DNA of 64,000 bases from Candidatus Nomurabacteria bacterium (lineage in GTDB: Bacteria > Patescibacteriota > Patescibacteriia > UBA1558 > GWA2-36-10), in contig JACKFO010000002.1 of NCBI GenBank assembly GCA_020632415.1, positions 386,732 to 450,731 on the forward strand, in the 5' to 3' direction. Shown here one piece after another: positions 22,468-41,516 of this stretch. The notes below the pieces were generated by a model. The model saw only the letters and a program-made list of their open reading frames with translations, ran no database searches and was not told where the DNA came from. Each line of letters opens with the position of its first letter. Position 1 is the stretch's first letter. The position numbers and the translations under genes were made by a program.

Positions 22468-22475
22468 TCGCCAAA

Positions 22476-24362: not shown

Positions 24363-24374
24363 AATCGCCTTTGA

Positions 24375-25034
24375 TCAAAAAATGATTACATTACCTTTTT
24401 CGGAAAAAGAATTAGAAAAATCCTCTCCAGAAATTTTCCAATTAGAATGCTCGTAACTCCCCTCTGACGAAGGATGGTGTAATATAAAATCATCTATTCG
24501 TCCATTTGAAACATCGGTCCCAAAAATCAAAACCAAATGACCACCTCTAGGCATGACATCAGTGGAGCCATCAAGTTCTTCATATTTTTTACCCGCCTCA
24601 AACCCAACTGTAACAGATGCAATAACCATTCTTTGATTTTGAATATGTGTTGCAATTCTTTTAACATTAGCCCCAACAGACTCCCTAAATCCATCTAACC
24701 CCAAGGAATTACCTAAATCGACTAATCCTTGATGTTTCCAGCCATGCTCCTCATCATAAGCCCCTAGAGCTAAGCCACGATCTAATAACTCTTTTAATTT
24801 AAAATCTTGATCTGGATAATTTTTTAACAACACCATCTTTAAACAAGCTAGACCACAAATTCTTTCTGACCAATACTCTGCTTCATCCCAATTATTAAAA
24901 CCTTCTTTTTGATAATTTTCTTTAGTTAACCTTTGTGAGTAAAAAGGAACATCGCTAATTTCAAAATGCCCATCGATGATTTCCGATCTATTTTCAAATA
25001 AATTTTTAAATTTCATAAATATTGTGCCTTGCAT
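24375..25034 (-). CDS. Standalone C39-type (papain-like) cysteine peptidase domain protein
   Basis: ERICGLACLKMVL matches the C39 catalytic-Cys signature CGxACLxM; the downstream GGHLVLIFG supplies the His. 219 aa, no transporter domain. Overlaps the upstream ligase gene by about 11-29 nt. Confidence 0.5.
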   Translation of the reverse strand: MQGTIFMKFKNLFENRSEIIDGHFEISDVPFYSQRLTKENYQKEGFNNWDEAEYWSERICGLACLKMVLLKNYPDQDFKLKELLDRGLALGAYDEEHGWKHQGLVDLGNSLGLDGFRESVGANVKRIATHIQNQRMVIASVTVGFEAGKKYEELDGSTDVMPRGGHLVLIFGTDVSNGRIDDFILHHPSSEGSYEHSNWKISGEDFSNSFSEKGNVIIF

Positions 25035-25941
25035 TATTTAATAACCAAATTAAAACTTGATAAAAATTTAACCTCGAACCCAATGCCGAATAAATAAAAT
25101 TACTATCACTATATAAACCAGGAACGCTATTTACCTCTAAAAAATATACCTCCCCATTTTTAGACTCAATCAAATCAAACCTTGCTCCACCCTTAATCTT
25201 TAAAAAACTAGAAATAACTCTAATTTTTTCAAATATTTTTTTCTTATTCTTGCCATAATAATATTTATACTCACAAAAACCATCTTCGTATTTAGCTTTT
25301 TTGTCATAAAATTGAGAATTTTTCATAATAATTTCTACTATCGATAATGGATTATAATTTCCACAAGACTCCAACACACCCACCGTTAAAATTTTACCAG
25401 CAACAAATACTTCTGTAAAATTTTGATCATAATTATCAAATATTTTCCCATTAATATTCAAATCTATACTCCCACCACCTCTTATTTTTTTATGAACAAA
25501 CAAATTTTTCTTAACCTTACTAAATCTTAAATCAAAATTATCCAGTGGAGTATTTACATTCAATTTATTAACAATCCCTTTAAAAAATAACTTATCAAAA
25601 GAAACCACGGAAGTATATACATCAGAAAAAGTATAATCTACATCTAAATAATCTAAAATAGATGCCAAATGTCCACTCTCGCCAAAGGTGCCATGCAAAC
25701 AATTAAAAACTATAGAATTTTTGGACAATCTATTAACCCAATCTTTGTCAACAGACGGATCAATCATCTCTATCTGCCAATTATTATTTAGTAATAATTC
25801 ACGCTTCACGGCTTCCCCTGAATACAAAGAAGCCTCTCTTTCTTCTCCGAATCCACCAAAAAATATATAAATTTTTTTACTCTTTAGATTATTTTCAATT
25901 TTAGAAAAATTATCTAAAAAAAATTTAACATTATCATTCAT
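25006..25941 (-). CDS. Divergent Ddl-family ATP-grasp ligase (paralog 3)
   Basis: KIYIFFGGFGEEREASLYSGEAV (Ddl N-domain), FNCLHGTFGESGHLASILDYLDVDYTFSDVYTSVVSFDK (compare FPVLHGxxGEDGxxQGLLElxxiPYvGxxvlaSAlaMDK), ARFDLIESKNGEVYFLEVNSVPGL (compare RVDFFLxxxGxxYLNEINTxPG); 311 aa. Confidence 0.6.
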   Translation of the reverse strand: MNDNVKFFLDNFSKIENNLKSKKIYIFFGGFGEEREASLYSGEAVKRELLLNNNWQIEMIDPSVDKDWVNRLSKNSIVFNCLHGTFGESGHLASILDYLDVDYTFSDVYTSVVSFDKLFFKGIVNKLNVNTPLDNFDLRFSKVKKNLFVHKKIRGGGSIDLNINGKIFDNYDQNFTEVFVAGKILTVGVLESCGNYNPLSIVEIIMKNSQFYDKKAKYEDGFCEYKYYYGKNKKKIFEKIRVISSFLKIKGGARFDLIESKNGEVYFLEVNSVPGLYSDSNFIYSALGSRLNFYQVLIWLLNNARHNIYEI

Positions 25942-26045: not shown

Positions 26046-28850
26046 TTATTTTTTCTTATTTCCTTCCTTTTCTACCTCTGCAATCTGCTCCTTAGTAGCT
26101 AATGGTACTTGAAATTTAAAAGTACTTCCTTTGTCCTTACCTTCACTCTCTACCCAAATTTGACCATTGTGCTCTTTGATAATCTTTTGAGCGATAAATA
26201 ATCCTAAGCCAGATCCGCCGGTATTAATCTGTGCTGCACCATCACCACGTACAAATTTTCTAAATAAAGCCCGGGCATCTGCCGGCTCAATGCCAACACC
26301 AGTATCTGTACTGCTAAACTCCAAGACGCCATCCTTAACCTCTGTCCTGACTTTTATACTACCCTGCGGTGTATATTTGATAGCATTATCAACTAAGTTC
26401 AAAACAACTTCTCTTAATTTATCCCCATCAGCATAAATTAAAGGCAAATCATTTTTTTCATCTACGTAGCTCAAATCAATTCCTTTGTTTTGAGCAGAAC
26501 TAGCTAACTCAGTAAGCACACTGGCAATTAAAGTACTGATTTGCATCGGTTTTTTTTCTAACTTTAAACGGCCAGCTTCAATTCGAGAAACATTTAAGAA
26601 AACATTAATCGTTCGAGCAAGTCGAGAAGCACTCTCAAATAAATTTTCAATCAACTTGCTAATTTTTTCTGGCAAAGGCCCAAAGTCTCCTTCCATCATC
26701 ATGGATAAATATCCTTTCAAAGCCGACACAGGGGTACGTAATTGGTGAGAGGCAATCGACAAAAATTCAGACTTTGCTTTATCTAGAGCTTTCAAATGCA
26801 AATTAGCCTCATTTAAATCATAATTTACTTTTTGTAAATTTTCGTATAAAGCCAAGTTTCGAGAAACTATTCCAACTTGACTGGTCAAAGAAGTCATCAT
26901 CTCAATATCCAAGGGGGTAATTTTTTCACGCTCTATAGCCAACAAAAAGTGAACCACGCCAATGATTCGATCTTCAGAAAATATCGGCACACCAACTACA
27001 GTTTTAACACCTAATTTTTCTTGAATAATATTAATCACATTTTTCTCAACTGGGGGCGAGAAAAAATCACTCATTTGATGTGAAAAATTTATTTTTGCGG
27101 TCAAAACTGTATCCACACCATAATTATAACCCTCTGTTAACTCTGCTTCATAATGAAAAATGTCTTCTGGTAATAACTCAATATTTTCCTTAGCTTGTTT
27201 ATTTTTAGTAACCGCTTTAACGCGTAATTTATGATCACCGTTGACAAAACTCAAAACTCCGCCAATGTATCCTAACTCCGCAGCAATGCTATCAGCGATC
27301 ATTTGCGTCACCTTTTTTAGATCCAAAGTACGACTAACCATGTTGATGATCACCTGCATTGTGGTCAAATAACGGTTTCTTTCTTCTAAATTTAAATTTG
27401 CTTGCTTCAAACTTTCGGTTTTTTCATCAACTTTTTTCTGCAAATCACGGTTTAATTCTTGCACTTCTTCGTATAGCTTTGATTTCTCAATCGCCGTCGC
27501 AATTTGTGGAGCTAAAACTTTGAAAAAATCAATATCATCTGTTCCAAAAATATCTCCGGATAATTTATTTGACAAAACAAACAAGGCGTTAGTTCGGCCA
27601 TTTTCCACGATCGGGATAGCCATTTCTGCGCCAATATTTTCAAACTCTTGAATGATCTTTTCTGTACTTTGTTTTATTTTTTCATCTTTTTTTTCATCCA
27701 AGCTTCTGACCAATTCCTCAGTGATCACTAAGTCTTGATTGTGATCAAAGTATTCAACTACTTTTTCAGTTAATTTTAAAGTATTATTTTTTTCTTGCGA
27801 ACTGGTCGTCAACATAAAATAACCATTCTGCGGCATGAAAACTTTAATTTTTTTGATCTTCAATTGCTTGGTTAAAGAAATAACTAAACTGTGCAAAAGA
27901 TCTTCTAGATCGATTTCACGAGCAACAATTAAGCTGGCTTCTCGCAAAACCGCAGAATAATTAATTTTGTCTTTATAAAAAATTTGATCGGTAACCTTAG
28001 CCCAGACTCTTTTGATTGGGTCTAAAAAAACAACAATTAAAATAGAGCTCAAAACTGTACTAATAATTCGACCATTACGCGTGTCGCCGCCAATTCTTGG
28101 TGCTAACCAAAAAATAGAAAAGGCAAAAAAACTAGCTACTGTACCAACCAAAACAGTATAGAGAATACTTCGAGTGATTATTAATTTAATATTCATCAAA
28201 CGATACCTCACTATTGCATATGTAATAGATATAATATACAAACCAACCAAATAATTCCCAACTGGATACACTTGAGAAAATTGTGGTAAAAAATTAAATA
28301 CTCCACCACCAAAACCAAAAAAAGCGGAATACAAAACGTATCTTATTTGCTGTTTCTTCATTCCGTACTCCTGATTCCCTATTTTTATTAATATAAAAAT
28401 TGAAAGACAAGCTAAAAATAAAAAAAATAATGGAAACAAAAAATAAATTGGACCGGGCTTTATCCAAAATTTAAAATTAAAAACGGACTCTAGCCCACTT
28501 TTAAAAAGTGTAGAGAAACTCAAAGCCGACAAAAAAAATGCAAAATAATACCCAAATCGAAGAAATTTCTTTAATTGATTTTGCTTATTAGTTAAATTAA
28601 TTACAAAATGAAAAAATAGTATTGGTATAAATATACCAGAAATATCTAATACTACTTGAGAAAAATAAGCCAGCTTGAAATTATCAAAATAAGTAACGCC
28701 GGCCAACCCAAGACTCCATAAAGCAGTAACAAAACTAACACTAGCCCATATTTGATTCAATTTAAATTTATTTTTTCTAAAAAAAACAAAACTAGCTAGT
28801 CCTAAGCTTAAAATTCCCGTTATTAAACTAGATAAAGAAAAAGCGCTCAT
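26046..28850 (-). CDS. Sensor histidine kinase with N-terminal multi-TM (HisKA_7TM-like) domain, GAF domains, HisKA and HATPase_c
   Basis: About 7 N-terminal TM helices; H-box SHQLRTPVSALKGY; N-box VLNLVDNAIKYTP; G1 DTGVGI; G2 GGSGLGLFIAQK; 934 aa. No response regulator in the window. Confidence 0.85.
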   Translation of the reverse strand: MSAFSLSSLITGILSLGLASFVFFRKNKFKLNQIWASVSFVTALWSLGLAGVTYFDNFKLAYFSQVVLDISGIFIPILFFHFVINLTNKQNQLKKFLRFGYYFAFFLSALSFSTLFKSGLESVFNFKFWIKPGPIYFLFPLFFLFLACLSIFILIKIGNQEYGMKKQQIRYVLYSAFFGFGGGVFNFLPQFSQVYPVGNYLVGLYIISITYAIVRYRLMNIKLIITRSILYTVLVGTVASFFAFSIFWLAPRIGGDTRNGRIISTVLSSILIVVFLDPIKRVWAKVTDQIFYKDKINYSAVLREASLIVAREIDLEDLLHSLVISLTKQLKIKKIKVFMPQNGYFMLTTSSQEKNNTLKLTEKVVEYFDHNQDLVITEELVRSLDEKKDEKIKQSTEKIIQEFENIGAEMAIPIVENGRTNALFVLSNKLSGDIFGTDDIDFFKVLAPQIATAIEKSKLYEEVQELNRDLQKKVDEKTESLKQANLNLEERNRYLTTMQVIINMVSRTLDLKKVTQMIADSIAAELGYIGGVLSFVNGDHKLRVKAVTKNKQAKENIELLPEDIFHYEAELTEGYNYGVDTVLTAKINFSHQMSDFFSPPVEKNVINIIQEKLGVKTVVGVPIFSEDRIIGVVHFLLAIEREKITPLDIEMMTSLTSQVGIVSRNLALYENLQKVNYDLNEANLHLKALDKAKSEFLSIASHQLRTPVSALKGYLSMMMEGDFGPLPEKISKLIENLFESASRLARTINVFLNVSRIEAGRLKLEKKPMQISTLIASVLTELASSAQNKGIDLSYVDEKNDLPLIYADGDKLREVVLNLVDNAIKYTPQGSIKVRTEVKDGVLEFSSTDTGVGIEPADARALFRKFVRGDGAAQINTGGSGLGLFIAQKIIKEHNGQIWVESEGKDKGSTFKFQVPLATKEQIAEVEKEGNKKK

Positions 28851-28854
28851 TGTT

Positions 28855-29553
28855 TTATGTAAAATTTAATATCCTCCATTTACGATTAATTGATACAGAT
28901 AACATCTTTTTTTTAGGATTCACAACTATGGGAATATCAGCCCAATTTAAAAGCTCAAAATCCGAATAATGATCAGAATAAACATGCACTAAAGGCCTAT
29001 GCTTAAATCGAAAATTATTATGCAAAAATTTACCAGCCGCCAACATTTTATCTCCACCATTCAAAACAACGCTTTTTAATTCCCCTGAATAAACATTGTT
29101 TTTAATATCTAAAACAGTCGAAATATAAAAATCAATATGTAAAAATCTACAAAATTGCTCAGCTATAGGATGTATTACATTTGATATAAGAACAATAATA
29201 TCGCCCTGTTGCTTGTACTTATTTATTAATAAAATAGCATCTTGAAATAAGTCATTTTTTATCTCAGCAAAAAAAAATTTATTCATCAAACTATACACCT
29301 CGCAATCATTCCACCCAGCAAAAATGCTGGCTAAATACTTTAAGCCAAACTCAATATTCTTTATTACTCCTATTTTATATAAAAAAAACCAAAAGAAAAC
29401 CAATGGCAAAGACATAAAGTGAATATAACCATTTTTATAAAGATATATGATTAATTTTTTTTGTGTATACCCATTAACAATAGTATTATCTATGTCAAAA
29501 AAAATAACTTTTTTCTTACCATTAATAATCATAAGTCTGTCCACATAAACCAC
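28855..29553 (-). CDS. HAD-superfamily (subfamily IB-like) phosphatase
   Basis: FFDIDNTIV DxD motif at the N-terminus; 232 aa; overlaps plsC by 32 nt. Confidence 0.55.
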   Translation of the reverse strand: MVYVDRLMIINGKKKVIFFDIDNTIVNGYTQKKLIIYLYKNGYIHFMSLPLVFFWFFLYKIGVIKNIEFGLKYLASIFAGWNDCEVYSLMNKFFFAEIKNDLFQDAILLINKYKQQGDIIVLISNVIHPIAEQFCRFLHIDFYISTVLDIKNNVYSGELKSVVLNGGDKMLAAGKFLHNNFRFKHRPLVHVYSDHYSDFELLNWADIPIVVNPKKKMLSVSINRKWRILNFT

Positions 29554-30115
29554 TGATTGTCTTCATAATCTTTATGGTTTCTTTATTAAAATCTTGACTC
29601 CTTACAAAAAAAACTTTCCCTATATTAATCTTACATTTTTTAAATTTTGGAAATCTATTTTCCGGTGGCCAAGCCAAAAAAGTTCCCTCAATGCCTATTG
29701 GTAGAACAGGAATGTTGTATTCATGTGCGAATTTTGCCACCCCACTATAAGCCTTACCAATACAACCATTCCTAGATCGAGTTCCTTCTGGAAAAATTCC
29801 TAGGACCCCCCCACTTCTCAATACATCGCCAACCTTTACATAAACATCGTTTTTATTATGAGAATTTCTATCAACTTTAATCTGCCCAGTCATTTCCATA
29901 ATTGGCTTCCATATTTTACTCGAAAAAAATTTTTCCGCGGCTAAAAATGATATTCTTCTAGGAAATAAAATAAATAAAATAATAAAATCTAAATAACTGT
30001 TATGGTTAGCGGCTAAAATAAAATTACCATCCGGAATATTGTTTTGGTTATTTATTTTTACTCGCCATAATAGCTTAATTGGTAAGTAAAATAAAAATCT
30101 TAATAAAAAATACAT
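29522..30115 (-). CDS. plsC: 1-acyl-sn-glycerol-3-phosphate acyltransferase (LPLAT/PlsC family)
   Basis: NHNSYLD (HxxxxD) and FPEGTRS motifs; 197 aa. Confidence 0.75.
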   Translation of the reverse strand: MYFLLRFLFYLPIKLLWRVKINNQNNIPDGNFILAANHNSYLDFIILFILFPRRISFLAAEKFFSSKIWKPIMEMTGQIKVDRNSHNKNDVYVKVGDVLRSGGVLGIFPEGTRSRNGCIGKAYSGVAKFAHEYNIPVLPIGIEGTFLAWPPENRFPKFKKCKINIGKVFFVRSQDFNKETIKIMKTISGLCGQTYDY

Positions 30116-31830
30116 TATGTTATAAATTTCTCTTTAATCCTCGCTCTTCTTAACTTTAAAGTCGGTGTTAATAAGCCATTTTCTTGTGAGAATTCTTGTT
30201 CTAATAACTTAAAATTATTCACCCTCTCTAAATGCGACCAATCTTTTAATTTTTCAGACAAAACATCAGAGTAAAGTTCTAAAACCTTTGTGTTATGTAA
30301 AATATCTGGAAATGAATAATTAAGATCATGCTCATTACACCAAATTTCTAATTCTTGAAAATCCGGTACAATTAACGCCGCGATATTTTTTTGCTTATCT
30401 CCATAAACAAAGCTTTGGGAAATAAGCTTACTCTCATTTAGCGTATTTTCAATTGGTTCTGGAAAAATATTTTTACCAGTAGAAAGAACAATCATATCTT
30501 TCGCTCTACCGATAATCGTTAAAAAACCATCTGCGTCTAAAAAACCAAGATCTCCAGTATGAAACCAAGCATCATTGTCGATCGCTCGCGCACTTTGTTC
30601 CTTATTATTATAGTATCCTTTCATCAAATTGTCACCTTTGACTAAAATCTCTTTATCTTCACCAATTTTTAATTGATTACAACTCAAAACTTTTCCTACA
30701 GTTCCAAATTTGTAATTCTTTAGTTGATTCACTGCGATAATTGGAGATGTTTCGGTTAAGCCATAGCCTTCGATTATTTGAATTCCAATATTAGCAAAAA
30801 ATTTAGCAATTGCGGGATTCAAAGAAGCACCACCAGAAATAGCCATTCGTAGATTACCGCCTAAAATTTTTCTTAATTTTTTAATAACCAATTTATCCAA
30901 GAAGAATAAACTAATTTTCTCTTTAAATTTTAATTTTCGCTGTTTTTTATACTTTGATAAATTAAGAGCTTGAAAAAATAAATGTTTCTTAAAATCCCCT
31001 CCAGCTCTAACTTGATCAAAAATTTTATCATAAATTTTTTCAAAAATACGCGGCACAGCATTAAGTACTGTCGGCTGAGCTAACTGAATATCTTCCACAA
31101 TTGTTTTGCTGTTACGAGCAAAATAAATACTGGCACCAGAAAATATTGGCGCGTAATACCCGGCACATCTTTCAAAAGCGTGAGAAAGCGGCATAAAAGA
31201 AAAAAACCTATCACGATTAGTAATATCAATCACGGCTTTGGCCGACATAACATTGGTGATTAAATTTTTATGGCTAAGCATCACTCCTTTTGGATCACCG
31301 GTGGTCCCAGAAGTGTAAATAATCGTATGCAAATCATTGTCATCAACAACTATTTTTTCCAAAACATCATAACTATTTTTGACAGGCATTTTCGGCCACA
31401 ACTTAATTACTTGATTTAACTCTTTGCAATCTCCAACAACTACGATATTTTTAAAAGAAAATTTTAACCAAATATCTTTAAATTTATTAAAATATTCTTC
31501 CTGAATAACTAAATAATCAACGTTAGCATGACTAAGTATTTGCTCAAGTTGCAAGCTATTATAAGTCAAATGTAACGGCACCAAGATCAAACCCAAACTA
31601 GCCAAAGCTAGGTCACTGACAATCCATTCCGGACCATTGCTCAACATTACAGCAACTTTTTCTTGTTTCTGCCAATTCCAAGCATGTAAATTGCTCACCA
31701 AGATTTTTCTTTGTTGATTAAGTTTTTGATAAGTAATTTTGTGATACTTTCCGCCAGAAAAATAAGCCAAAGCAATATTTTTAGGATACATTTTAGCTAT
31801 AGACTCAAATTTTGTAGCAATCGTGAACAT
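30115..31830 (-). CDS. Long-chain-fatty-acid--CoA ligase (AMP-dependent synthetase)
   Basis: AMP-binding motif IIYTSGTTGDPKGVMLSHKNL; 571 aa. Confidence 0.8.
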   Translation of the reverse strand: MFTIATKFESIAKMYPKNIALAYFSGGKYHKITYQKLNQQRKILVSNLHAWNWQKQEKVAVMLSNGPEWIVSDLALASLGLILVPLHLTYNSLQLEQILSHANVDYLVIQEEYFNKFKDIWLKFSFKNIVVVGDCKELNQVIKLWPKMPVKNSYDVLEKIVVDDNDLHTIIYTSGTTGDPKGVMLSHKNLITNVMSAKAVIDITNRDRFFSFMPLSHAFERCAGYYAPIFSGASIYFARNSKTIVEDIQLAQPTVLNAVPRIFEKIYDKIFDQVRAGGDFKKHLFFQALNLSKYKKQRKLKFKEKISLFFLDKLVIKKLRKILGGNLRMAISGGASLNPAIAKFFANIGIQIIEGYGLTETSPIIAVNQLKNYKFGTVGKVLSCNQLKIGEDKEILVKGDNLMKGYYNNKEQSARAIDNDAWFHTGDLGFLDADGFLTIIGRAKDMIVLSTGKNIFPEPIENTLNESKLISQSFVYGDKQKNIAALIVPDFQELEIWCNEHDLNYSFPDILHNTKVLELYSDVLSEKLKDWSHLERVNNFKLLEQEFSQENGLLTPTLKLRRARIKEKFIT

Positions 31831-31834: not shown

Positions 31835-32632
31835 TCAATGTTTCTTAATAAATTCTAATGTTTTTGAAAAAATAAAATCTCTCCTGGTATTATCTACTAC
31901 GTTATGTTCGTCTTTATTTAAAATAAACAAATGTTTGTCTTTGGTATTTGACAACTCTCTAAATAAAAATTCAGAACTATAGGGATCGGAAACTAAATCG
32001 TCACGAGAGTGAATCACTAATACTGGAACAGAGACTTGGTTAATTTCTTTCTTAGTCTTCTGGTCAATGAAATCATAAAAATTAATAATGCTGTTAATTG
32101 GAATATGATTATGTCTTCCTTGATCACGAATATTTTCCTCCTCCTCTTCACTGAGCCAATATTTTTTGTAAGTCTTTTTAAAAATCTTGGCCAAAGGCAA
32201 TAAAAGTCTAATTCTTTTTTCATTGCGCATAAAAATCGGTAAGCCTAAAGAAATAACGCCAGTCACATCATCTTGATACTTTACCGATAAACTAAAAGCT
32301 AAATTTGAACCAAAAGAATAGCCAATAAAAAATATCTTTCGATACTTACCAATATTTCTAAGTAAACAATCCTCTACTGTTTTAAACCAATCTTCAGCAT
32401 TACTAGCTGCTAACCTTGCTGTACTTGAACCATGCCCTGCTAACAAAGGCACTTCAACATCCATCTTATTGATTGCCAAAAAATCTGCCAAAATCCAGAG
32501 ATCATAAGGTGTGCCAGTGAAACCGTGAACTAAAATCACCAAAGTATCATTGTTCTTTTTGATACTAAATGGCCAAGCTTTTTTTGTTACCCCCTCCAAT
32601 TCAACAAACTTTTTTTCTTGTTGTTCAATCAT
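31835..32632 (-). CDS. Alpha/beta-hydrolase (esterase/lipase-like)
   Basis: LVHGFTGTPYD and GxSxG (GYSFGSN) motifs; 265 aa. Confidence 0.6.
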   Translation of the reverse strand: MIEQQEKKFVELEGVTKKAWPFSIKKNNDTLVILVHGFTGTPYDLWILADFLAINKMDVEVPLLAGHGSSTARLAASNAEDWFKTVEDCLLRNIGKYRKIFFIGYSFGSNLAFSLSVKYQDDVTGVISLGLPIFMRNEKRIRLLLPLAKIFKKTYKKYWLSEEEEENIRDQGRHNHIPINSIINFYDFIDQKTKKEINQVSVPVLVIHSRDDLVSDPYSSEFLFRELSNTKDKHLFILNKDEHNVVDNTRRDFIFSKTLEFIKKH

Positions 32633-32641: not shown

Positions 32642-33229
32642 TTAAGCTTTATATTTTTTTTGAAGAAAAATATGATAATCCTTATCTTTTTGAAGCTGCT
32701 GATCAATCAAAGACCTTAGCCAATCAGCCTTTGGCATACCTTCTGTTTGTGCACGCCAAGCTAAATAATCAGACATTTTTGGCGAAACACGTAAAGTGTA
32801 TTTAACGTTAATGATGTCTCTGCCGCTATCTTGATCTAATTTTTGCAAAAAATTTAACAAAATTTGATTAATATTTTTAATAGCGCAGGCTTTGATTTCT
32901 ACTTTATTTTTAAAATTTTTGTTATCACCCAAACTCTTCAAAGCTTTATTTTTTATTCCTTGTTGGTCAGTCAAAAATAAAACCGGCTTATTTTCTGAAA
33001 TTGCCAAAGCAACGAAATAGCTACTTTCCTCTGCTAAATTCTTCCCATAAATCACCAGGGCATCTGCCTGAGCCAAAGAGGCATCGCCGGGTTTGTTGGC
33101 ATTGAGATTACTAAAAGTTTCTACTTGCGCTTTACGCAAATATTGCAAAATAGCTCGACTGACTTCATTTTTTGCTTGACTATAAAAATAAACTACCATA
33201 TTATTTTTTAAAATTAACAAACTCATCAA
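32642..33229 (-). CDS. Hypothetical two-domain protein (flavodoxin-like N-domain; RHH-like C-terminal segment)
   Basis: No catalytic motif recognised; the C-terminal KMSDYLAWRAQTEGMPKADWLRSLIDQQL resembles a ribbon-helix-helix. Confidence 0.3.
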   Translation of the reverse strand: MMSLLILKNNMVVYFYSQAKNEVSRAILQYLRKAQVETFSNLNANKPGDASLAQADALVIYGKNLAEESSYFVALAISENKPVLFLTDQQGIKNKALKSLGDNKNFKNKVEIKACAIKNINQILLNFLQKLDQDSGRDIINVKYTLRVSPKMSDYLAWRAQTEGMPKADWLRSLIDQQLQKDKDYHIFLQKKYKA

Positions 33230-34190
33230 TTAAATTCGCTTTTAACATTTTTGGCCAATCACTCTCTGCGACATTTGCCATCAACCACAAAACTTTGGCA
33301 ATCACTGTTTCTTTGGTACAAGAACTGATGGTGCTAAAATCTTTTTCTTGTTGTAAATACTGAGGATGATAAAGAATCACTGTCTTTTCTAAAGATTTAA
33401 AATACTTAATCTGTTCAAGTGACAACTCTTCATCGTGTAAAAACACTAAAACAGCCTGATAATTTACAAAAGCTTCTTTGGGCCATAAATTTTTTTCCTG
33501 CAAATAATCATCAATAATACACAAACCTCGGGACAAATTCTGATATTTCTTGGTCAAATTTTTAGAATAAGCTAAATTATTTTTGTAACTAATCCCAAAA
33601 TCTATTTTAGCCAAATAATCGTCATCAACACTGCTCAATACATATTTTCCTTGTTGATACTCTAATTTTGCTTTGATGCCAGCAACCAAGCGACTGCCAA
33701 ACATCACCGCTACTTGTGCCAATTCTTCTCCTGCTACTTGCACAGCATTAATCAAATTGGATCTCAAACCCAAACCCCCTTGATTAGCAATCAGATCTTG
33801 CATGATTTCCTTTTTTTCTTTGGTATAAGCTCCGCTCATTTGTGAAGCGGTAACTACGATAGTTTTTTTAAAATTTTGCAATAAAAAATTCAAAACCGTA
33901 GCAGTCAAAATAGCTCTTTCTGCTTTGGTCACCACAACAAATCCGTCATAATCTGCTTCTTTTTTGATAATCAAGGTTGCTAATTTTTCCCATAAAGAAA
34001 AACTAAGCTGCGCTTCTTCATTGACCACAAACTCTGTTTCTACTGCTGACAAAATTCCTAATTCTGGCATAGTATTGAGCCATAAATCAACATCACCAGT
34101 GTTATTGACTGCCAACATATTTTTTGCCTTATCAACTGTCCAAGTACCACCGGCTAAGAGTAAACAAATTTTCTTCTTAGTTTTGGTCAT
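33201..34190 (-). CDS. L-asparaginase/GatD-family protein with degenerate second catalytic motif
   Basis: LLAGGTWT (compare TGGTIAG); YDGFVVVTKAERAILTATVLNFLLQNFKKTIVVTASQ aligns with AnsA [24 protein letters not shown]...VIVTGSQ, with HGTDT replaced by TKAER. Confidence 0.5.
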   Translation of the reverse strand: MTKTKKKICLLLAGGTWTVDKAKNMLAVNNTGDVDLWLNTMPELGILSAVETEFVVNEEAQLSFSLWEKLATLIIKKEADYDGFVVVTKAERAILTATVLNFLLQNFKKTIVVTASQMSGAYTKEKKEIMQDLIANQGGLGLRSNLINAVQVAGEELAQVAVMFGSRLVAGIKAKLEYQQGKYVLSSVDDDYLAKIDFGISYKNNLAYSKNLTKKYQNLSRGLCIIDDYLQEKNLWPKEAFVNYQAVLVFLHDEELSLEQIKYFKSLEKTVILYHPQYLQQEKDFSTISSCTKETVIAKVLWLMANVAESDWPKMLKANLIDEFVNFKK

Positions 34191-34891
34191 TACTGTTTAC
34201 GATTAAAGGCTACTAAATAAAATACAACTAAATTCATGGGTATAGTAAAGATTGGGCCAACCCAAATATATGAATGAATATCAAAATAATCTAAAAATAA
34301 ATCAAAGTACGCACCAACAACAAGGCCTATTAATATAGTAATAAATAAAAGCTTTGTCCCTAATTTAAAGTGAGATTCGATATTGACGTACTTAGACCAC
34401 AAAATATACAATGAATAACAAACCATGGCTATAAATAATAAACTATACAAAATATAAAAAGGCTTAAAATAAGTTACATAAACTTCGTGAGCATTATTAA
34501 TTCTACCAAAATCCAATATGTGAGTTTTCGTGTAAACAACAAAAGAAATAGCAATCGAAACTCCAATGATAATATTTCTATGAATTTTCTTTATTACTCT
34601 AGTTGGAAATGGAAAATAAAAAATGAAATAAAATAAAAATACAGATATAAACCAAGCAGAAAGATAAGAAGTTTGAAAGAAAAACTTAGAAACGGTCAGG
34701 TCAAAAAACGCTAAACTAACAAACAAACTAGTGCCCCAGCCAAAACAAGAAAGAGCCAACAAAGAGAAATAAAGATTAATTTTATTTTTTACACCTCTGC
34801 TCAAGATAAAAATGGCCATGCCCAAATTAATCAAAGCAGATATTAACAATAACCAATTTTTCCAACCCAAAGGTGATGTTAAAAAATCCAT
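34190..34891 (-). CDS. HisKA_7TM-like multi-pass membrane protein (no kinase domain), paralog a
   Basis: 233 aa, about 7 TM helices. The N-terminus (LISALINLGMAIFILSRGVKNKINLYFSL) is paralogous to the N-terminus of the 26046 histidine kinase and to the two neighbouring genes. Confidence 0.5.
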   Translation of the reverse strand: MDFLTSPLGWKNWLLLISALINLGMAIFILSRGVKNKINLYFSLLALSCFGWGTSLFVSLAFFDLTVSKFFFQTSYLSAWFISVFLFYFIFYFPFPTRVIKKIHRNIIIGVSIAISFVVYTKTHILDFGRINNAHEVYVTYFKPFYILYSLLFIAMVCYSLYILWSKYVNIESHFKLGTKLLFITILIGLVVGAYFDLFLDYFDIHSYIWVGPIFTIPMNLVVFYLVAFNRKQ

Positions 34892-34895
34892 ATGT

Positions 34896-35585
34896 TTAAT
34901 ATTCTAATTTCTTATCTTTTTTTAAAAATATTAAATAAAATGCTACAAAATTAATAGCCAAAGTAAATAGTGGACCTAAATAATAAAATCTAAATTCATC
35001 AAAATACATGGCGTACAAATTAAAATAGCTACCAGCAGCAACTCCGACTATCACCCCTAATAACACCAAGAATATTGATCTTTTAAAAATCTTATCTGCC
35101 TTCAGGTATTTTAACCATAAATGCACAATTGCTAGCAACATTAAAATACTTAAAACAATTGTAAAGATTAAGTAAGCGATCGGCTCATAAACAACCGTAT
35201 TTAAATAATTAATTTTAACGGATAAAGAAAATTTTTGGTAAAAAAATAAAAAATACAACGAAGCTACATAAAAAATAAAACTAAGAATCTTTTTAAAATA
35301 ATCATTTAAATTTACATTTTTAAAAGGAAAATGAATCGTAAAATAAAAAAGATTTAATACTACTAATAAAGATGCAAAATAAATAAAGCTAGCAGAAAAT
35401 CTGACAACTTCATAATTATTACTCAACCTAAACAATAATAAACCACCAGCCCACAAAATATTAAAAAAGGTCATCAAGGAAAAGTACTTATTTATTGGAT
35501 TTTTCCAACCGCGCCTAATAATTATAAGGCTCATTATCAAATTTAATATCGCTGCTAAAAATAAAAGTAAAGCTTTATAATCCAT
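34896..35585 (-). CDS. HisKA_7TM-like multi-pass membrane protein, paralog b
   Basis: 229 aa; LAAILNLIMSLIIIRRGWKNPINKYFSL shares the RG-KN-INxYFSL motif. Confidence 0.5.
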   Translation of the reverse strand: MDYKALLLFLAAILNLIMSLIIIRRGWKNPINKYFSLMTFFNILWAGGLLLFRLSNNYEVVRFSASFIYFASLLVVLNLFYFTIHFPFKNVNLNDYFKKILSFIFYVASLYFLFFYQKFSLSVKINYLNTVVYEPIAYLIFTIVLSILMLLAIVHLWLKYLKADKIFKRSIFLVLLGVIVGVAAGSYFNLYAMYFDEFRFYYLGPLFTLAINFVAFYLIFLKKDKKLEY

Positions 35586-35594
35586 ATAATTAAA

Positions 35595-36959
35595 TTATTT
35601 ATTTGCTAATAACAAACTACCAACAGCAATGTCTAAATATTTTTGAATATTTTCCATAAATTGCAACTGCTGACGAGATAGTAATTTTTGTCCATGGTCA
35701 ATAATCAAAACTCCTAATAATTGTTGATTATAAAAAATTGGCAAGGCTAAATCAATTTGCTGTTTTTGTAAAGCCACTGCCAAATACTTATCTTCCTGCC
35801 AATAATCAAGCTCCGCCTGATGAATCAACTTGCTCTGGCTTGCCAAAAACTGCAATAGTTGACTATCGTTTAAATTTAATAAACGCTCACCAACTGGAAA
35901 AACTTGATGAAAAACCTCATGATTATTATGCTTAGCCAAATAAACAAAAATTTCTCGGTAGCTAATCACCTGACTTATTTCTTTGGCTAGTTGCGAAAAA
36001 AGAGTATTCAAGTCTCTAGTTGAACGTAAAATTTCAGCAATGCTTAACTCTGCTTGTTTTATTTTTTGATTAGGATTAAAAAATAAAAGATTTACTAAAC
36101 GAAATAAAAATTTATACAACCATGGAGAGGTGAGCCCGATAAACAAAACAAATAAAATTTGGTCTAAGACATTTTTAAAATCTAAATCAATAAAGTTTAA
36201 TAATAACCAGAAAATCAAATAATAAATCACCAAGACAATAAATAAAGTCAGTAAATCAATTGCGCTTTTAGAAAATGATAATTTTAAATCCAAAAAACGA
36301 TCATGCGAAAGAGCATAAACCAAAACAATCGTAAAAAATACCGAAGAGTCAACGCCAATATAAAATAATGACTTAATATTGATCAGAGGTAAAATAACGC
36401 TAAACAACAAACCTAGAATAGCTGTAATTGCTGTACCAAAAAAAATATAATCAATTTGTTTTTTGATAACCAAATTTGCTTGCCGACGATTTTTCAACAA
36501 AAAAGATAGAGCAAAAATTAACAAAGCAGCAAAATATATACTAAAAAACCAATACAAATAACCTTGTTCAAAAACAAACCCGCTTTCAGTCAAAGTGACC
36601 GACTTGACATTATAAGCAGTAAACAAAAAAGGAATCGCCACAATCGCTGGTAAAAATAAAGCATTTTTTTTCCAAGCTACTAAATTTTTCCACAAACCAA
36701 ACAAAGAAAAAACCAGCCATACAAAGGCTGGAGCCAAAAAAAGATTAGGCAACAAACCAAAACGAGCGCCTAATAATAAATGATCTGTTCCTCGAAGCCA
36801 AAAAACATTAGTCAACTCAATTACCTCCCAAAGAGTAATCAAAAAAATTAAGACAAAAAGCGGCACTCTTTGCTGCTGTTTTTTATTTAAGCCAACATAA
36901 ATCAATAAAGTGATATTGATCGCCAAGGCCAGCCATAAAATAAGATTAGCTAAAGTCAT
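35595..36959 (-). CDS. 7TM sensor-domain protein with C-terminal GAF-like domain and no kinase output
   Basis: 454 aa; N-terminal 7TM region paralogous to the above; C-terminal roughly 150 aa with a GAF-like pattern (…LAVALQKQQIDLALPIFYNQQLLGVLIIDHGQ…). Confidence 0.5.
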   Translation of the reverse strand: MTLANLILWLALAINITLLIYVGLNKKQQQRVPLFVLIFLITLWEVIELTNVFWLRGTDHLLLGARFGLLPNLFLAPAFVWLVFSLFGLWKNLVAWKKNALFLPAIVAIPFLFTAYNVKSVTLTESGFVFEQGYLYWFFSIYFAALLIFALSFLLKNRRQANLVIKKQIDYIFFGTAITAILGLLFSVILPLINIKSLFYIGVDSSVFFTIVLVYALSHDRFLDLKLSFSKSAIDLLTLFIVLVIYYLIFWLLLNFIDLDFKNVLDQILFVLFIGLTSPWLYKFLFRLVNLLFFNPNQKIKQAELSIAEILRSTRDLNTLFSQLAKEISQVISYREIFVYLAKHNNHEVFHQVFPVGERLLNLNDSQLLQFLASQSKLIHQAELDYWQEDKYLAVALQKQQIDLALPIFYNQQLLGVLIIDHGQKLLSRQQLQFMENIQKYLDIAVGSLLLANK

Positions 36960-37110
36960 TATTTTCTGTTTAAACTAGCCGTCAAAACGGCCAGCCGTCA
37001 TTAAAATCATAGTAAAATAACGCTCTTTTGTCAAATCATTTGAGTTGACAAAATTGGTAAAAAATGTTTAACTAATTAATCACATCGCACCTTAACAACA
37101 GGAGTACAGC

Positions 37111-37881
37111 ATGTCTACTTTTCCTGCACTGCACCTTGCTCCTGTTACCAGAAGCAAAAACGTCGCGCTACTGTTTCTAGCTGGCCTATGGTCAGTCGCT
37201 GAAGTCTGGTCTGAATGGCAACAATTAGCCGCAAAAAGAGGCTACGGAAGCTGGGCGCTAACCCTAAAACCCAAAACAAGAGCAACGTCACTCAAAGATT
37301 ACGCGTTATACGTCTTGGACTTTCTCAAGGAGCCTGAAGGACGCGGCACCAACCCTGTGATCATCGGGCACTCCATGGCTGGATTAGTGACGCAAATGGT
37401 CGCTGAACATTACAATCTCCCTGGCGTGGTTCTGCTCAATAGCGCCGCTCCAGCCGGAATTAGTAATTTTAGCCTGCCTTTAGCCTTACGCATTTTTCCA
37501 TATCTCAAAAGCATCTTGGGCAATGAGTTATTCATGCCGAGCTTAAGAGACTCCAAGGCTCTCTTATTCAACAATCTGGGCAATGTCACAGCTGAAGTGA
37601 TGTCAGCCTATCACCAAGAACTAGTACCTGATTCTGGAAAAGCAGCCAGAGAAATCATCCTGGGAACAGTAGCAGTCAAGCACACTTACTGCCCAACACT
37701 GATACTTGGTGGTAGCCAAGATCGAATTCTGCCTACCAGAATTCAAAGAAAACTAGCCACCAAATACTCCTCCGCCATCTATCTGGAAGTAGACCACGGG
37801 CATGTGACAATGTTAGAGCCTAGCTCTGACCTCGTTCTGCACGCGATCTTAGATTGGACCGAAAAACTCCCGCCTCTTTGA
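37111..37881 (+). CDS. Alpha/beta-hydrolase, GC-rich (probably horizontally acquired)
   Basis: GHSMAG nucleophile elbow; about 48% GC in the first 60 nt against about one-third elsewhere; own promoter-like TTGACA upstream and AGGAG SD; TGA stop; opposite strand to all neighbours. Confidence 0.65.
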   Translation: MSTFPALHLAPVTRSKNVALLFLAGLWSVAEVWSEWQQLAAKRGYGSWALTLKPKTRATSLKDYALYVLDFLKEPEGRGTNPVIIGHSMAGLVTQMVAEHYNLPGVVLLNSAAPAGISNFSLPLALRIFPYLKSILGNELFMPSLRDSKALLFNNLGNVTAEVMSAYHQELVPDSGKAAREIILGTVAVKHTYCPTLILGGSQDRILPTRIQRKLATKYSSAIYLEVDHGHVTMLEPSSDLVLHAILDWTEKLPPL

Positions 37882-37941: not shown

Positions 37942-38655
37942 TTAATTTATCCCCATAAGCTTAGACATTTCAATAATCCATTGACTTAAATCTTGATTAT
38001 TTTTCCATATCTTTTTACCGTTCATAATTAATTTTCGATGATTTGGGTAACCTATATTTTTTATTTTACCATGTAATTTAATAAAATCTTCAGTATCCTG
38101 TAAAACTGCATTAAAAATTTCAGATAAATCCCAAAATTTTCCTTCTTCTGTATTTAAATGTTTAAATTTTTTAGAAAAAGTTATTTGAACAAAATCATAA
38201 AAAATAAAATGAAGCATTTCATGAAAAATAGTAAAGAGCTGAATTTTTTTATTATCATAAAGAAAAATCTGAAAACTACCATCATCTAAAAAACGTGGAC
38301 AAAAATCAAAAATAGAAAAAAATCCAGTAAACTTCTTTTTGGGCCATGGATAATGATTAAAAATTTTATCAACTACTTTAAAAAAATAATTCTGAGATTC
38401 ATCAAGATAAATAGAAGTTTTTTTGCTCAATTTTTCTAATTCATCAAAATGAAAATTATAAAATTGAAAAATATATTTATTCAAAAAAACTTTAGCATTC
38501 TTAGAAGACTCAATTTCTAAAAGTTTTGGATGATGATTCAATGCTCTTTCTTGCCAAAAATTACAACCACCAATTTCTTGATTATTAAAAAACTCCCAAG
38601 CTAAATCTTGGTCTAATTTTTGATTAAACTTTAATTTTATTATTGGATTAGGCAT
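37942..38655 (-). CDS. Hypothetical HExxH-motif protein (putative Zn-metallopeptidase-like)
   Basis: FHEMLHFIFYDF contains HExxH; 237 aa, extremely AT-rich, no TM helix. Confidence 0.35.
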   Translation of the reverse strand: MPNPIIKLKFNQKLDQDLAWEFFNNQEIGGCNFWQERALNHHPKLLEIESSKNAKVFLNKYIFQFYNFHFDELEKLSKKTSIYLDESQNYFFKVVDKIFNHYPWPKKKFTGFFSIFDFCPRFLDDGSFQIFLYDNKKIQLFTIFHEMLHFIFYDFVQITFSKKFKHLNTEEGKFWDLSEIFNAVLQDTEDFIKLHGKIKNIGYPNHRKLIMNGKKIWKNNQDLSQWIIEMSKLMGIN

Positions 38656-38706
38656 AATATTATTATTTATAAAAAACTCACTAACATTATATCATTTTTT
38701 AAAAAT

Positions 38707-39525
38707 TTATCCCCTAACATTAATCAAATTACCACTGCTATATCTTTTTAAGCCTCGGTAATAAACCAATAAAGAAAAAAGAAAAAATATAATTGTAAAT
38801 AAAATTAAATATAAAAATTTACTCAAAACAAATTCTTTTAACAAATCAGCTGGCCAAAAAGTAGCAAAGCCAGCTGGAATAACAAAAAAGATAATAAATT
38901 TAACCACTCCTTGGAAAACTGACGATGGATTAGTAGAAAAGGCTAAAAAAGCATGAAATAAACTACTTTGCAAAACTTCATTGCGACCAAGCCAAAAACT
39001 CAATGAGCCGATTAAAATATAAAAGGCTAACAAAATCATTGCCCCGCTCAAAATTCCAAAAAATAACAAAAAGATTGATAAAAGATTAGCTGGAAAAAAT
39101 AAGAAAAAAGCGATTGGCGCAAACAACATATCGCCCCAGGCTGACAAATCAGTTCTACTCACCAAAGCATGCAGTAAATGATTTTTTGGAAAAGAAAAAT
39201 AAAAATCTAATTCTCCATTGCTAATGATTGTCCCTAAATTTGCGGCATTGCCAAAAACAGCATTAACCAAACCAAATCCTCCAGCACCAAAAATCCACAA
39301 AGCAATCATCTCTCGAAAACCAAAACCGTTTAAATCACCAAAATATTGAAAGAAAAAATACCAAATCAACAAAAATAAACCGTCGTTTAAAATCATAAAT
39401 ATAGCCTGGCTCAAAAAATTAAAACGAAACTCCATTGCTGAAGCTAAATTATATTTCAGATAAGCCCAGATAAAATCCAAATTTTTAACCACCATTGATA
39501 TTAACTTTTTTAACACCTTGTCCAT
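38707..39525 (-). CDS. ABC-2 type transporter permease
   Basis: 272 aa, 6 predicted TM helices; downstream of the ATPase and first permease. Confidence 0.6.
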   Translation of the reverse strand: MDKVLKKLISMVVKNLDFIWAYLKYNLASAMEFRFNFLSQAIFMILNDGLFLLIWYFFFQYFGDLNGFGFREMIALWIFGAGGFGLVNAVFGNAANLGTIISNGELDFYFSFPKNHLLHALVSRTDLSAWGDMLFAPIAFFLFFPANLLSIFLLFFGILSGAMILLAFYILIGSLSFWLGRNEVLQSSLFHAFLAFSTNPSSVFQGVVKFIIFFVIPAGFATFWPADLLKEFVLSKFLYLILFTIIFFLFSLLVYYRGLKRYSSGNLINVRG

Positions 39526-40330
39526 AAATTATTTTAATTAAAAAACAAAAAATAATAATCCAAACTACTTGCCTCGTGACTAAAATTTGCCAATAAACCA
39601 AATCAAAATTTACCATTGTCTTTGCTGGTCCGTACAAAATACCTTCAAAGGGCAAATAATGAATAATTTTTTGCAAAAACTCTGGATAAACATCAATCGG
39701 AAAAAGCAAGCCACCAAAAATAAAAACAATTTTCTGATAAATAAAGCGCAGCGATCTAATATCCTCCAACCAAAAAGCAAATAAACTAACCGAACCAGCA
39801 ATGACAAAATTTAAAACTACCGCCAAAAAAACAGAGCTTGCTCCCGCTAAAAATGACCACAAACTAATTCCTAATAAAGGAGAAAATAAACTAAGCAGTA
39901 AAACTCCGACCATCGCTTTGATCAGCATACTAACTACAACTCGCCCTAAAAAATAGCTAAAATAATAAGACATAAAGCTATAGGGCTTACTCAAAACATA
40001 AGCAACATTGCCATTTTTTATTTCTTCGCCAATGGTCAAAATCACATTTGGTTGCGAAGTCAAAATCAACTCAGTGATAAAAACGTACCAAATCATTGCC
40101 GATAAACTGAAACCAACAATTAATTTTTCTGGATGTTCAGCGTAAACTACCAGCCAAACCTGACTCATCACAAAGGTAATTAATAAAATAAAAATATTAG
40201 AATAAAAAAGCTCCAAAGGATAAGCCAAGCGATCTCTAACGCTCACCCTAAAAATAGCCAAATATTTATTTATTTTTAAGAGAATTTTGTGCATAAATGT
40301 TACTAATAATCTCCTCCATCGGCGTCTCAA
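39485..40330 (-). CDS. ABC-2 type transporter permease
   Basis: 281 aa multi-TM; the true start is probably an internal Met given the overlap with the ATPase gene. Confidence 0.6.
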   Translation of the reverse strand: MRRRWRRLLVTFMHKILLKINKYLAIFRVSVRDRLAYPLELFYSNIFILLITFVMSQVWLVVYAEHPEKLIVGFSLSAMIWYVFITELILTSQPNVILTIGEEIKNGNVAYVLSKPYSFMSYYFSYFLGRVVVSMLIKAMVGVLLLSLFSPLLGISLWSFLAGASSVFLAVVLNFVIAGSVSLFAFWLEDIRSLRFIYQKIVFIFGGLLFPIDVYPEFLQKIIHYLPFEGILYGPAKTMVNFDLVYWQILVTRQVVWIIIFCFLIKIIYGQGVKKVNINGG

Positions 40331-41267
40331 AAATACCGATATCTTCTACTTGATAAATATTTAATAATTGATCCAGTACAGCCTTCACCGAAGTTTTTTT
40401 GACATCCAATTCAAATTGCCAATTATAATTTTCAGCTTTTAAAATTCTTACTCCTGGTATTTTTATTTTCGACTTCACATTTCCTCCATTAATAATTTTT
40501 AAATCAATAATTTTGTAAGCTGCATATTTTTCTTTCAAAGCCTTGACTGTGCCGTCAAAAATTATTTTTCCCAGATCGATTACTATCACTCTGTCAGCAA
40601 TTTTTTCCAAATCACCAGCATCATGAGAGGTTATAAAAATTGTTGTCCCCTCTTCTTTGTTCATGGTATTTAAAACTTCTCGCAACTGTTGTTTTGCTAC
40701 TACGTCCAAACCAATCGTTGGCTCATCTAAAAACAATATTTTTGGCTGATGAATTAAAGAAGCAATCATTTCACAACGCATTCTTTGACCTAATGATAAT
40801 TTTCTCACTGGTTGATACACGAAATCTTGCACTTGAAATTTATCAATCAAAAAATCTAAACGTTTTTTAAATTTTTTTGCTTCAATTTCATAAATCTTAC
40901 CAAAAAGATAAAAAGTATCCATTGCCGGTAAATGATACCAAAGTTGAGGTTTTTGACCAAAAACTGTGCCAATTTGAAAGGCTAGTTGCTTACGTTCTTT
41001 CCAAGGAGTCAAACCAGTCACCTTAACTTCTCCGCTATCCGGATGCAAAATTCCCGTCAACATTTTAATCGTCGTCGATTTACCGGCTCCGTTTGGTCCA
41101 ATAAAAGCTACTTTCTCACCTTTGGCAACTTGAAAACTAATTTGATCAACTGCAATAAAATCAGCTAATTGCTTTCTGAAAACCGACCGAAAGCTGGCCT
41201 TCAAGCCCAAAGCCTTTGTTTTCTTTTCAAACTTTTTACTCAAATTTTTTACTTCTACTGCTTGCAT
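40266..41267 (-). CDS. ABC transporter ATP-binding protein (ABC-2/DrrA-like)
   Basis: Walker A GPNGAGKSTT, signature LSLGQRMR, Walker B ILFLDEPTIGLD; the likely start is MQAVEVKNLSKKF. Confidence 0.8.
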   Translation of the reverse strand: MQAVEVKNLSKKFEKKTKALGLKASFRSVFRKQLADFIAVDQISFQVAKGEKVAFIGPNGAGKSTTIKMLTGILHPDSGEVKVTGLTPWKERKQLAFQIGTVFGQKPQLWYHLPAMDTFYLFGKIYEIEAKKFKKRLDFLIDKFQVQDFVYQPVRKLSLGQRMRCEMIASLIHQPKILFLDEPTIGLDVVAKQQLREVLNTMNKEEGTTIFITSHDAGDLEKIADRVIVIDLGKIIFDGTVKALKEKYAAYKIIDLKIINGGNVKSKIKIPGVRILKAENYNWQFELDVKKTSVKAVLDQLLNIYQVEDIGIFETPMEEIISNIYAQNSLKNK

Positions 41268-41516
41268 ATTTTTAAATTTATATTCTAAAAAATCGCCCAA
41301 GATATTGGACGACTTTTTGTTAATTTGCTGAAATTTTAAATATTTATTAGAAAATATTAAATAACAAAAAGTCTATCCAAAAAACCATCGACAATAACTG
41401 GATAGGATGCGCGCAAACACATTTTGTTACTTAAATTATTCATATATTTTTACTATAATGAAAAAATAATATTTTGTCAAATTCTATACTTATACCTCTG
41501 TAATTATCTAGGCAAA

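Follow-up and report, generated by a model that had tools for sequence, protein, structure and literature searches.

HisKA_7TM (PF16927) has been described only as a part of kinases in the literature that we searched (PMC5847659, PMC6944256). Here, an array of three genes for kinase-less proteins of this type, called A, B and C, was investigated in a 64,000-nt stretch of the genome of Candidatus Nomurabacteria bacterium (Patescibacteriota; assembly GCA_020632415.1, contig JACKFO010000002.1, positions 386,732 to 450,731), referred to below as the window. HisKA_7TM is a widespread kinase input domain, for which we know of no ligand or mechanism, and Patescibacteria are unable to synthesize lipids themselves and possess very few regulators. 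We found that A, B and C are like HisKA_7TM in that they match most of its model, carry (in A and B) the signature that follows transmembrane helix 1 (TM1) and have a predicted seven-helix bundle with the N-terminus outside and the C-terminus inside. Unlike HisKA_7TM as described, the module stands alone in A and B and is joined only to a GAF domain in C. In fact, NCBI names some stand-alone members "histidine kinase N-terminal 7TM domain-containing protein", which puts their existence on record. The domain family is thus already known; what is new is that such modules are paralogous, arrayed and variable between strains, and that they exist in split and fused versions.

Kinase-less polytopic proteins that control kinases are represented by SpdC with WalK (PMC5854430) and LiaF with LiaS (PMC3543457), and they are thought to act through contacts between membrane domains. 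A, B and C resemble SpdC and LiaF in being kinase-less multi-pass membrane proteins encoded near a sensor kinase. However, SpdC (Abi/CAAX fold) and LiaF are unrelated to the input domains of their own kinases, whereas A, B and C, as putative accessories, are paralogs of the kinase sensor. Another comparison is offered by LytS-type BtsS (PMC10653868) and the 7TMR-DISM proteins (PMC6107284), 7TM receptors in which ligands are bound in the membrane domain. Here too a seven-helix membrane bundle is the sensing element of a bacterial signalling protein, but these receptors belong to different Pfam families and are covalently linked to their output. We hypothesized that the three array proteins serve as subunits of an intramembrane sensor with several modules, which works with the kinase encoded downstream, and that A is its exchangeable specificity subunit. 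We give this reading a probability of about 45%.

Domain content, fold and kinship with the kinase

Three consecutive minus-strand open reading frames (ORFs) of 233, 229 and 454 aa (table 1) were present at exactly the coordinates claimed in the first-pass annotation, an earlier reading of the DNA letters. Its domain assignment, HisKA_7TM-type input modules without kinase output and one of them with a GAF domain, was fully supported by Pfam, hhalign, AlphaFold2 (AF2) and Foldseek. With a gathering score of 28.6 bits for the Pfam model of 224 positions, A reached 35.8 bits (model positions 1-193), B 39.0 (1-214), C 31.8 (2-222) and the 934-aa kinase 37.3 (3-222), and the GAF domain (PF01590) of C reached 26.3 bits against a gathering score of 22.4. 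Pfam detected neither HisKA nor HATPase_c in A, B or C, and a custom hidden Markov model (HMM) of the kinase core did not match them either; both searches pointed to the 934-aa protein only (HisKA 55.7 bits and HATPase_c 95.9 bits in Pfam). It is also the only one of the four in which the module is the N-terminus of a histidine kinase, as the name and description of the HisKA_7TM family have it. No NCBIfam model matched A, B or C. In Pfam, 5TMR_LYT (PF07694) and 7TMR-DISM (PF07695) did not match them at E<=1; a distant relative, P0179, gave a sub-threshold 7TMR-DISM_7TM match of 23 bits. The earlier reading had allowed that profile searches might place the proteins in an unrelated transporter family. 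Nothing of the kind appeared: neither Pfam nor NCBIfam placed A, B or C in a family of transporters or enzymes, and Foldseek returned no solved homolog, transporter fold or enzyme fold for the 7TM bundle from the PDB.

Two details of the first-pass annotation held in part. The motif R/K-G-x-KN-x-IN-x-YFSL, ascribed to all three proteins, occurs in A (SRGVKNKINLYFSL), in B (RRGWKNPINKYFSL) and, less strictly, in the kinase, but is missing from C (LNKKQQQRVPLF); what had been seen is the general post-TM1 signature of the whole HisKA_7TM family. The count of about seven TM helices was right for A and B, but C and the kinase have seven plus two before the GAF domain. The AF2 model of B, made from the family alignment, showed seven helices with very short loops (predicted local distance difference test, pLDDT, 93.2; predicted template-modelling score, pTM, 0.90) and an external beta-hairpin of ~15-20 aa between helices 4 and 5. 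In the model of C (pLDDT 86.5), the same bundle and hairpin were combined with two additional long TM helices, a helix that connects them onward and the GAF domain. The chain stopped directly behind the final helix of the GAF domain, so that its end is a clean domain boundary. The hydropathy of the array proteins agreed with the modelled helix counts. Because of the Lys/Arg-rich loops, which in B are RRGWK after TM1, KADKIFKR after TM5 and the KKDKK tail, the positive-inside rule places the N-terminus outside and both the signature motif and the C-terminus in the cytoplasm. The top 50 Foldseek matches of the B bundle in the PDB were all of the G-protein-coupled receptor type, at a generic level of similarity (TM-score 0.5-0.65, ~12% identity). 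The GAF domain of C matched the isolated GAF structures 3k2n, 3ci6, 4g3v, 3o5y and 3trc with TM-scores of 0.6-0.69; it contains the invariant motifs FPVGER, LPIFYNQQLLG and YLDIAVGS, and the strands of its putative pocket are strongly conserved.

As the first-pass annotation had supposed, the array proteins are related to the N-terminus of the kinase, and in rigorous alignments of family profiles by hhalign this similarity was highly significant. The C family aligned colinearly with the kinase family (99.6%, E 2.5e-24), with residues 1-447 of C over residues 1-457 of the kinase. The joint family of A and B matched the 7TM family of the kinase (99.3%, E 1.5e-20) and the C family (98.1%), and A and B shared 27% identity in BLASTP (E 2e-21). 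By these profiles, C is a homolog of the entire N-terminal half of the kinase, that is, of its 7TM module, two further TM helices and GAF domain. A protein that is colinear with kinase residues 1-457, ends exactly after the C-terminal helix of the GAF domain and has neither a DHp nor a catalytic domain might be a dominant-negative decoy, forming dead heterodimers with the kinase or titrating its ligand and so setting a threshold, with A and B doing likewise at the membrane level. It is well known that kinases can be restrained by accessory membrane proteins, examples being LiaF (PMC3543457) and SpdC (PMC5854430). Nevertheless, C and the kinase are old and divergent paralogs, with a BLASTP E of only 0.095 and ~15% identity in hhalign, which argues against simple mimicry of the dimer interface. 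The sign of regulation, moreover, is unreadable from sequence, and a decoy differs from the multi-module sensor only in the direction of its effect. We consider the decoy distinctly unlikely.

Fused modules in other phyla and exchange of gene A

The relationship between array and kinase was placed in a wider setting by an exhaustive profile search of 1.84 billion representatives, which returned 3074 relatives at E<=1e-3; architectures were taken from the best 150. Among these 150, 64 were stand-alone proteins of 200-265 aa and the others were kinases of several architectures. Two tandem 7TM modules in one kinase of ~750-1095 aa occurred nine times among them (P0138, P0145, P0148, P0171, P0173, P0175, P0195, P0198 and P0209, of which P0195 is partial, with 839 aa), and P0134 (1495 aa) contains four 7TM modules followed by PAS-HisKA-HATPase. 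After each fused module, an eighth helix (the TM8 linker) restores the topology. The multi-module kinases with an organism name come from Margulisbacteria, WOR-1 and Omnitrophota. The stand-alone relatives bearing such names (3 of the 20 looked up) were all from Patescibacteria or Komeilibacteria. Because two- and four-module kinases exist, the feeding of several HisKA_7TM modules into one kinase is a recurrent design, and the window array, in which A, B, C and the kinase make four modules in four genes, looks like the split version of these fused kinases. An assignment of the fused modules to the A, B, C or kinase type was abandoned, the scores being too similar. The suggestion of the first-pass annotation that the array proteins are co-sensors or decoys for the full-length kinase therefore has support of an indirect kind, from their co-location with it in ~17 loci and from the kinases that fuse two or four modules elsewhere.

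The short modules are the dynamic part of the array. In related loci (numbered L001 to L031), their copy number was one in L008/L028, L021 and L031, three in L014, L016, L018 and L020, and two in most loci including the window. L016 and L018, with 88-92% nt identity, share all three of their paralogs, but the second and third have traded places. The sharpest case was provided by L005 and L010. The flanks of A were 96.4% and 96.3% identical in nucleotides, whereas the A ORF, 702 nt long in both, was 54.5% identical in nucleotides and 42% in protein. One breakpoint falls 11 nt past the ATG and the other at TAATG, where A meets the next gene, so the swapped segment is the A ORF alone; the neighbouring B and asparaginase-like genes were 97-98% identical. 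By its boundaries in the alignment, the A slot of this pair is a precise allelic (cassette) replacement. In a neighbour-joining tree, several deep A-type lineages appeared with a distribution independent of species relationships, while B and C were single clades. Within the A family, the cytoplasmic loop-1 motif, TM1, TM2 and TM7 were most conserved, and outer loop 2, TM4 and the external hairpin were most variable.

Polymorphic sensor loci that define specificity groups are familiar from staphylococcal agr and the Bacillus comQXP pherotypes. The A slot of L005 and L010 resembles them, since divergent membrane-sensor alleles with sharp boundaries lie in otherwise near-identical genomes. Unlike in agr and comQXP, the variable unit, A, is an entire gene of its own rather than part of the kinase, and no co-varying gene for a signal peptide or its processing, of the agr/com type, was evident beside A in L005 versus L010. 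Considering that copy number varies from one to three, that gene order is permuted, that alleles are replaced precisely between strains and that most variation falls in the loop and hairpin that face outward, the short modules could also be regarded not as sensors but as polymorphic surface or membrane proteins under conflict-driven diversification, such as phage or host-contact receptors or immunity-like proteins, which share ancestry with kinase inputs. The RHS-like genes that flank the block in L030 and carry the same upstream repeat as it (see below) would fit this explanation. However, the RHS association was seen in that one locus only, toxin or phage genes are not regular neighbours, and the conservation of B and C is high. 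Otherwise, members of the family occur in fusion with kinases, and the constant cytoplasmic motif suggests an intracellular partner. Such diversification without a sensory role therefore seems very unlikely to us.

Conservation, the gene block and its putative promoter

The lengths of A, B and C are nearly fixed in metagenome-assembled genomes of Patescibacteria at identities down to 31-46%: the 15 orthologs of B measured 225-231 aa, the 50 A-type relatives 223-239 aa and the 52 orthologs of C 454-471 aa. Between L005 and L010, the sole genome pair unsaturated at synonymous sites, pN/pS was 0.05 for B and also for C, and 0.03-0.10 for the neighbouring enzymes; by this measure B and C are under strong purifying selection. 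The fixed lengths and the low pN/pS indicate that A, B and C are maintained genes. They contradict the view, raised in the first-pass annotation, that these are remnants of histidine-kinase genes losing their output domains. Although the domain content does resemble that of truncated kinases, no trace of kinase-domain sequence was found downstream and C ends at a clean domain boundary, so that decay is an extremely improbable explanation.

The first-pass annotation had also proposed comparative genomics for conserved tandem arrays. Look-ups of locus context, a scan with one genome per species and maps made with custom HMMs revealed one such block. An arrangement comprising C, one to three short 7TM genes, the asparaginase-fold gene, a gene for a protein of ~190 aa (UNK190), an alpha/beta-hydrolase, an acyl-CoA-ligase-like gene, variable genes and the kinase has been kept in ~20 species of Patescibacteria. 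The variable stretch between ligase and kinase is occupied by acyltransferase and HAD, aminotransferase or flavoprotein genes, and the upstream context changes by lineage among cysteinyl-tRNA synthetase (CysRS), tyrosyl-tRNA synthetase (TyrRS) and M16 peptidase. In the window, the hydrolase, the acyl-CoA-ligase-like gene and a PlsC-type acyltransferase are the lipid-handling genes of the block. The kinase was located 5-8 kb downstream of the array in ~17 loci and was found wherever the downstream flank was long enough. One more short module is found immediately upstream of the kinase in L003, L010/L005 and L017.

Some records of these loci have peculiarities of their own. In L003, a B-type module is followed by a 535-aa protein without a Pfam match (10723-12327), and at 12337-15157 the kinase is broken into pieces of 481, 236, 68 and 75 aa, probably by assembly frameshift errors; the CysRS and acyl-CoA ligase genes of L005 are similarly fragmented. 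The records of L014, L018, L024, L026 and L027 are labelled "uncultured Gammaproteobacteria", "Neisseria sp." or "Sulfurimicrobium sp.", probably through mis-binning or mislabelling of a block of the Patescibacteria type.

Table 1. Features of the array, the DNA upstream of it and the block in the window
Feature	Positions	Strand	Basis and remarks
Gene A, 233 aa, bare 7TM module; variable/exchangeable short paralog	34190-34891	minus	ORF, Pfam, relatives
Gene B, 229 aa, bare 7TM module; conserved short paralog	34896-35585	minus	ORF, Pfam, AF2, orthologs
Gene C, 454 aa, HisKA_7TM + 2 extra TM helices + GAF; lead gene of operon	35595-36959	minus	ORF, Pfam, hhalign, AF2
GAF domain of C, aa ~316-452	35604-36014	minus	Pfam (aa 316-438), AF2 secondary structure (317-452), Foldseek
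Promoter-like site TTGACA-17-TATGAT upstream of C	37006-37034	minus	11/12 consensus, best in 7.8 kb scanned; function inferred
Direct repeat GACGGCT-N9-GACGGCT, starts 6 nt past -10 box	36977-36999	minus	Single in 64 kb; candidate operator/leader
Sensor kinase, 934 aa: HisKA_7TM + 2 TM + GAF + GAF + HisKA + HATPase_c	26046-28850	minus	Pfam
Asparaginase-fold gene	33201-34190	minus	Pfam Asparaginase N-terminal 62 bits; second catalytic motif altered
UNK190, conserved protein, 186-195 aa	32642-33229	minus	Alignment; in every locus
Alpha/beta-hydrolase	31835-32632	minus	Pfam; conserved in block
AMP-binding acyl-CoA-ligase-like gene	30115-31830	minus	Pfam; conserved in block
PlsC-type acyltransferase	29522-30115	minus	Pfam; in variable part of block

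The asparaginase-fold gene always stands directly downstream of the last short 7TM gene. The best PDB match of its product was L-asparaginase I (2ocd, E 3e-7), with the catalytic HGTDT aligned to TKAER. The protein keeps the first catalytic motif, GGT, while HGTDT is replaced by T/S-K-x-D/E-x in 6/6 orthologs, and from these motifs it may not be a canonical asparaginase. The family also takes in the mammalian 60-kDa lysophospholipase (PDB matches 9s7z and 9s7y). UNK190 has an invariant C-terminal NxKYTLRxS...YLxW...KA...R motif but no Pfam or PDB match, and its true start is likely an internal Met, which would give the 186 aa seen in the orthologs. A ribbon-helix-helix (RHH) regulator suggested by KYTLRVS...KADWLR was not supported, since hhalign against seven classic RHH sequences gave 0.2% and Pfam and the PDB gave noise only.

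These two proteins are central to an explanation that bypasses the kinase. In it, C, B and A would make up a sensor of their own that signals via the GAF domain of C and/or the constant cytoplasmic loop-1 motif to the co-translated asparaginase-fold protein and UNK190, and would control lipid salvage without phosphotransfer. The order of the genes fits, since in every locus the asparaginase-like gene comes immediately after the last short module, either overlapping it by TAATG or a few nt away, and UNK190 comes next. The conserved non-canonical active-site motif suggests a non-standard role for the asparaginase-like protein, the C-terminal motif of UNK190 is invariant, the GAF domain of C is conserved like an enzyme domain, and a kinase-less 7TM-GAF-GAF protein (P0144) occurs in Nitrospiria. 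Against this, short modules in L003 and L017 lie away from the asparaginase-like gene and beside the kinase, a kinase invariably forms the end of the fused proteins in other phyla, and DNA binding by UNK190 is unsupported by the comparisons above. We also know of no precedent for an asparaginase-fold signalling partner. A receptor of this kind that is independent of the kinase is, in our judgement, doubtful.

The array genes are closely spaced, with 9 nt between C and B, 4 nt between B and A and a 1-nt overlap (TAATG) between A and the asparaginase-like gene. Together with the one strong promoter-like site upstream of C, these tight junctions fit co-expression of the array. The pattern TTGACAAAA...TAnnAT has been kept upstream of C in most other species. 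Between this site and the start of C, the GC-rich GACGGCT repeat was observed once in the window, where 100 shuffles gave an expectation of 0, and it was found at the same place upstream of C in 19/19 loci inspected: 17 were exact, L019 had one mismatch and L031 a degenerate second repeat. The scan of loci confirmed it in every locus with C, with a spacing of N9-10 and a start 6-9 nt past the -10 box. Extra copies in other genomes precede unrelated genes, often the gene after the kinase (e.g. L008, L014, L028 and L031). This distribution makes the repeat a candidate for the operator or leader element of some small regulon; Rfam had no match to the leader/repeat region of C. An inverted repeat over the -35 box of the window, TTTGTCAA-N9-TTGACAAA, was dropped since it is not conserved in other species, and terminator-like matches inside C were disregarded as lying within an ORF. 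In L030, two paralogous proteins of 384-385 aa (7087-8238 and 13372-14526) with an RHS/YD-repeat-like core end (YDPYGQ, LQYYGARYLD and DP in this order) flank the 7TM block; the first has no Pfam match. There a GACGGC repeat stands before each RHS-like gene and before a short 7TM gene, and gene C is apparently absent.

Further genes surround the block in the window. A second alpha/beta-hydrolase, divergently transcribed (37111-37881, plus strand), lies immediately upstream of the operon promoter, and beyond it is an ABC-2-type transporter with ATPase and permeases (37942-41300, minus strand); these, too, may serve in lipid handling. On the other side, the kinase is directly followed downstream (21357-25941, minus strand) by an unusual cluster of peptide-ligase paralogs, consisting of a canonical D-Ala-D-Ala ligase and two divergent Ddl-like ATP-grasp paralogs, together with a VanX/M15-like dipeptidase and a C39-like peptidase. 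Over window positions 591-54301, nearly every gene is on the minus strand and GC skew is steadily negative, and both change after ~55 kb.

A putative multi-module sensor and its meaning

The data show family membership, fold, conservation, synteny, fusions elsewhere and the allele swap; from these we infer the physical assembly of the modules, their coupling to the kinase and the nature of the signal. In the multi-module sensor that we propose, A, B and C would probably form a membrane complex, both among themselves and with the 7TM-GAF-GAF kinase encoded downstream. Such a complex would correspond, in separate genes, to the kinases of other phyla with two or four modules in one chain. The protein most likely to touch the kinase directly would be C, by contacts in the membrane and between GAF domains; it might activate, gate or inhibit the kinase, and B would be a conserved auxiliary module. 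A would combine a constant face, made of the cytoplasmic loop-1 motif, TM1, TM2 and TM7, with a variable surface that faces outward or toward the lipids and possibly determines the signal recognized. The modules hardly extend beyond the membrane and the block is surrounded by genes of lipid salvage, for which reason the signal would most likely be membrane-borne, such as a lipid, a lipid-derived molecule or a membrane state. A further step would be a split modular receptor of episymbiotic Patescibacteria in which C and the 7TM-GAF-GAF kinase are the constant core and the bare 7TM proteins are specificity subunits, duplicated, shuffled and swapped between strains by recombination, so that the host-derived membrane lipid or surface cue that turns on lipid salvage is retuned. 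Two-component sensors are not known to diversify their receptors in this way; taken as a whole, this picture appears rather unlikely.

Several points weigh against the multi-module sensor. No receiver (REC) domain was found in the 64-kb window, where phmmer with CheY, PhoB, Spo0F and NarL queries gave a best E of 0.3, and none appeared in the Pfam lists of the related loci examined, so that the kinase has no known response regulator to define the output of the system. The stop/start overlap links the short modules more tightly with the asparaginase-like gene than the kinase is linked with them. Shared gene order in a single bacterial lineage may stem from inheritance and not function, and same-strand adjacency is weak operon evidence in this genome because almost all genes over ~54 kb of the window share one strand. 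The fused modules of other phyla are no closer to A and B than to the module of the kinase, so the argument from fusion is one of architecture and not of orthology. The link to lipids, finally, is guilt by association, drawn from gene neighbourhood and the near absence of extramembrane mass.

If the bare modules do dock onto the kinase, two-component input domains could act as separate and exchangeable subunits. The split and fused versions of one receptor across phyla would form a natural system for dissecting intramembrane sensing. The strain-level swap of A offers a testable handle on specificity. For Patescibacteria, a conserved sensor block inside a lipid-salvage cluster is a plausible entry point to the perception of their hosts.

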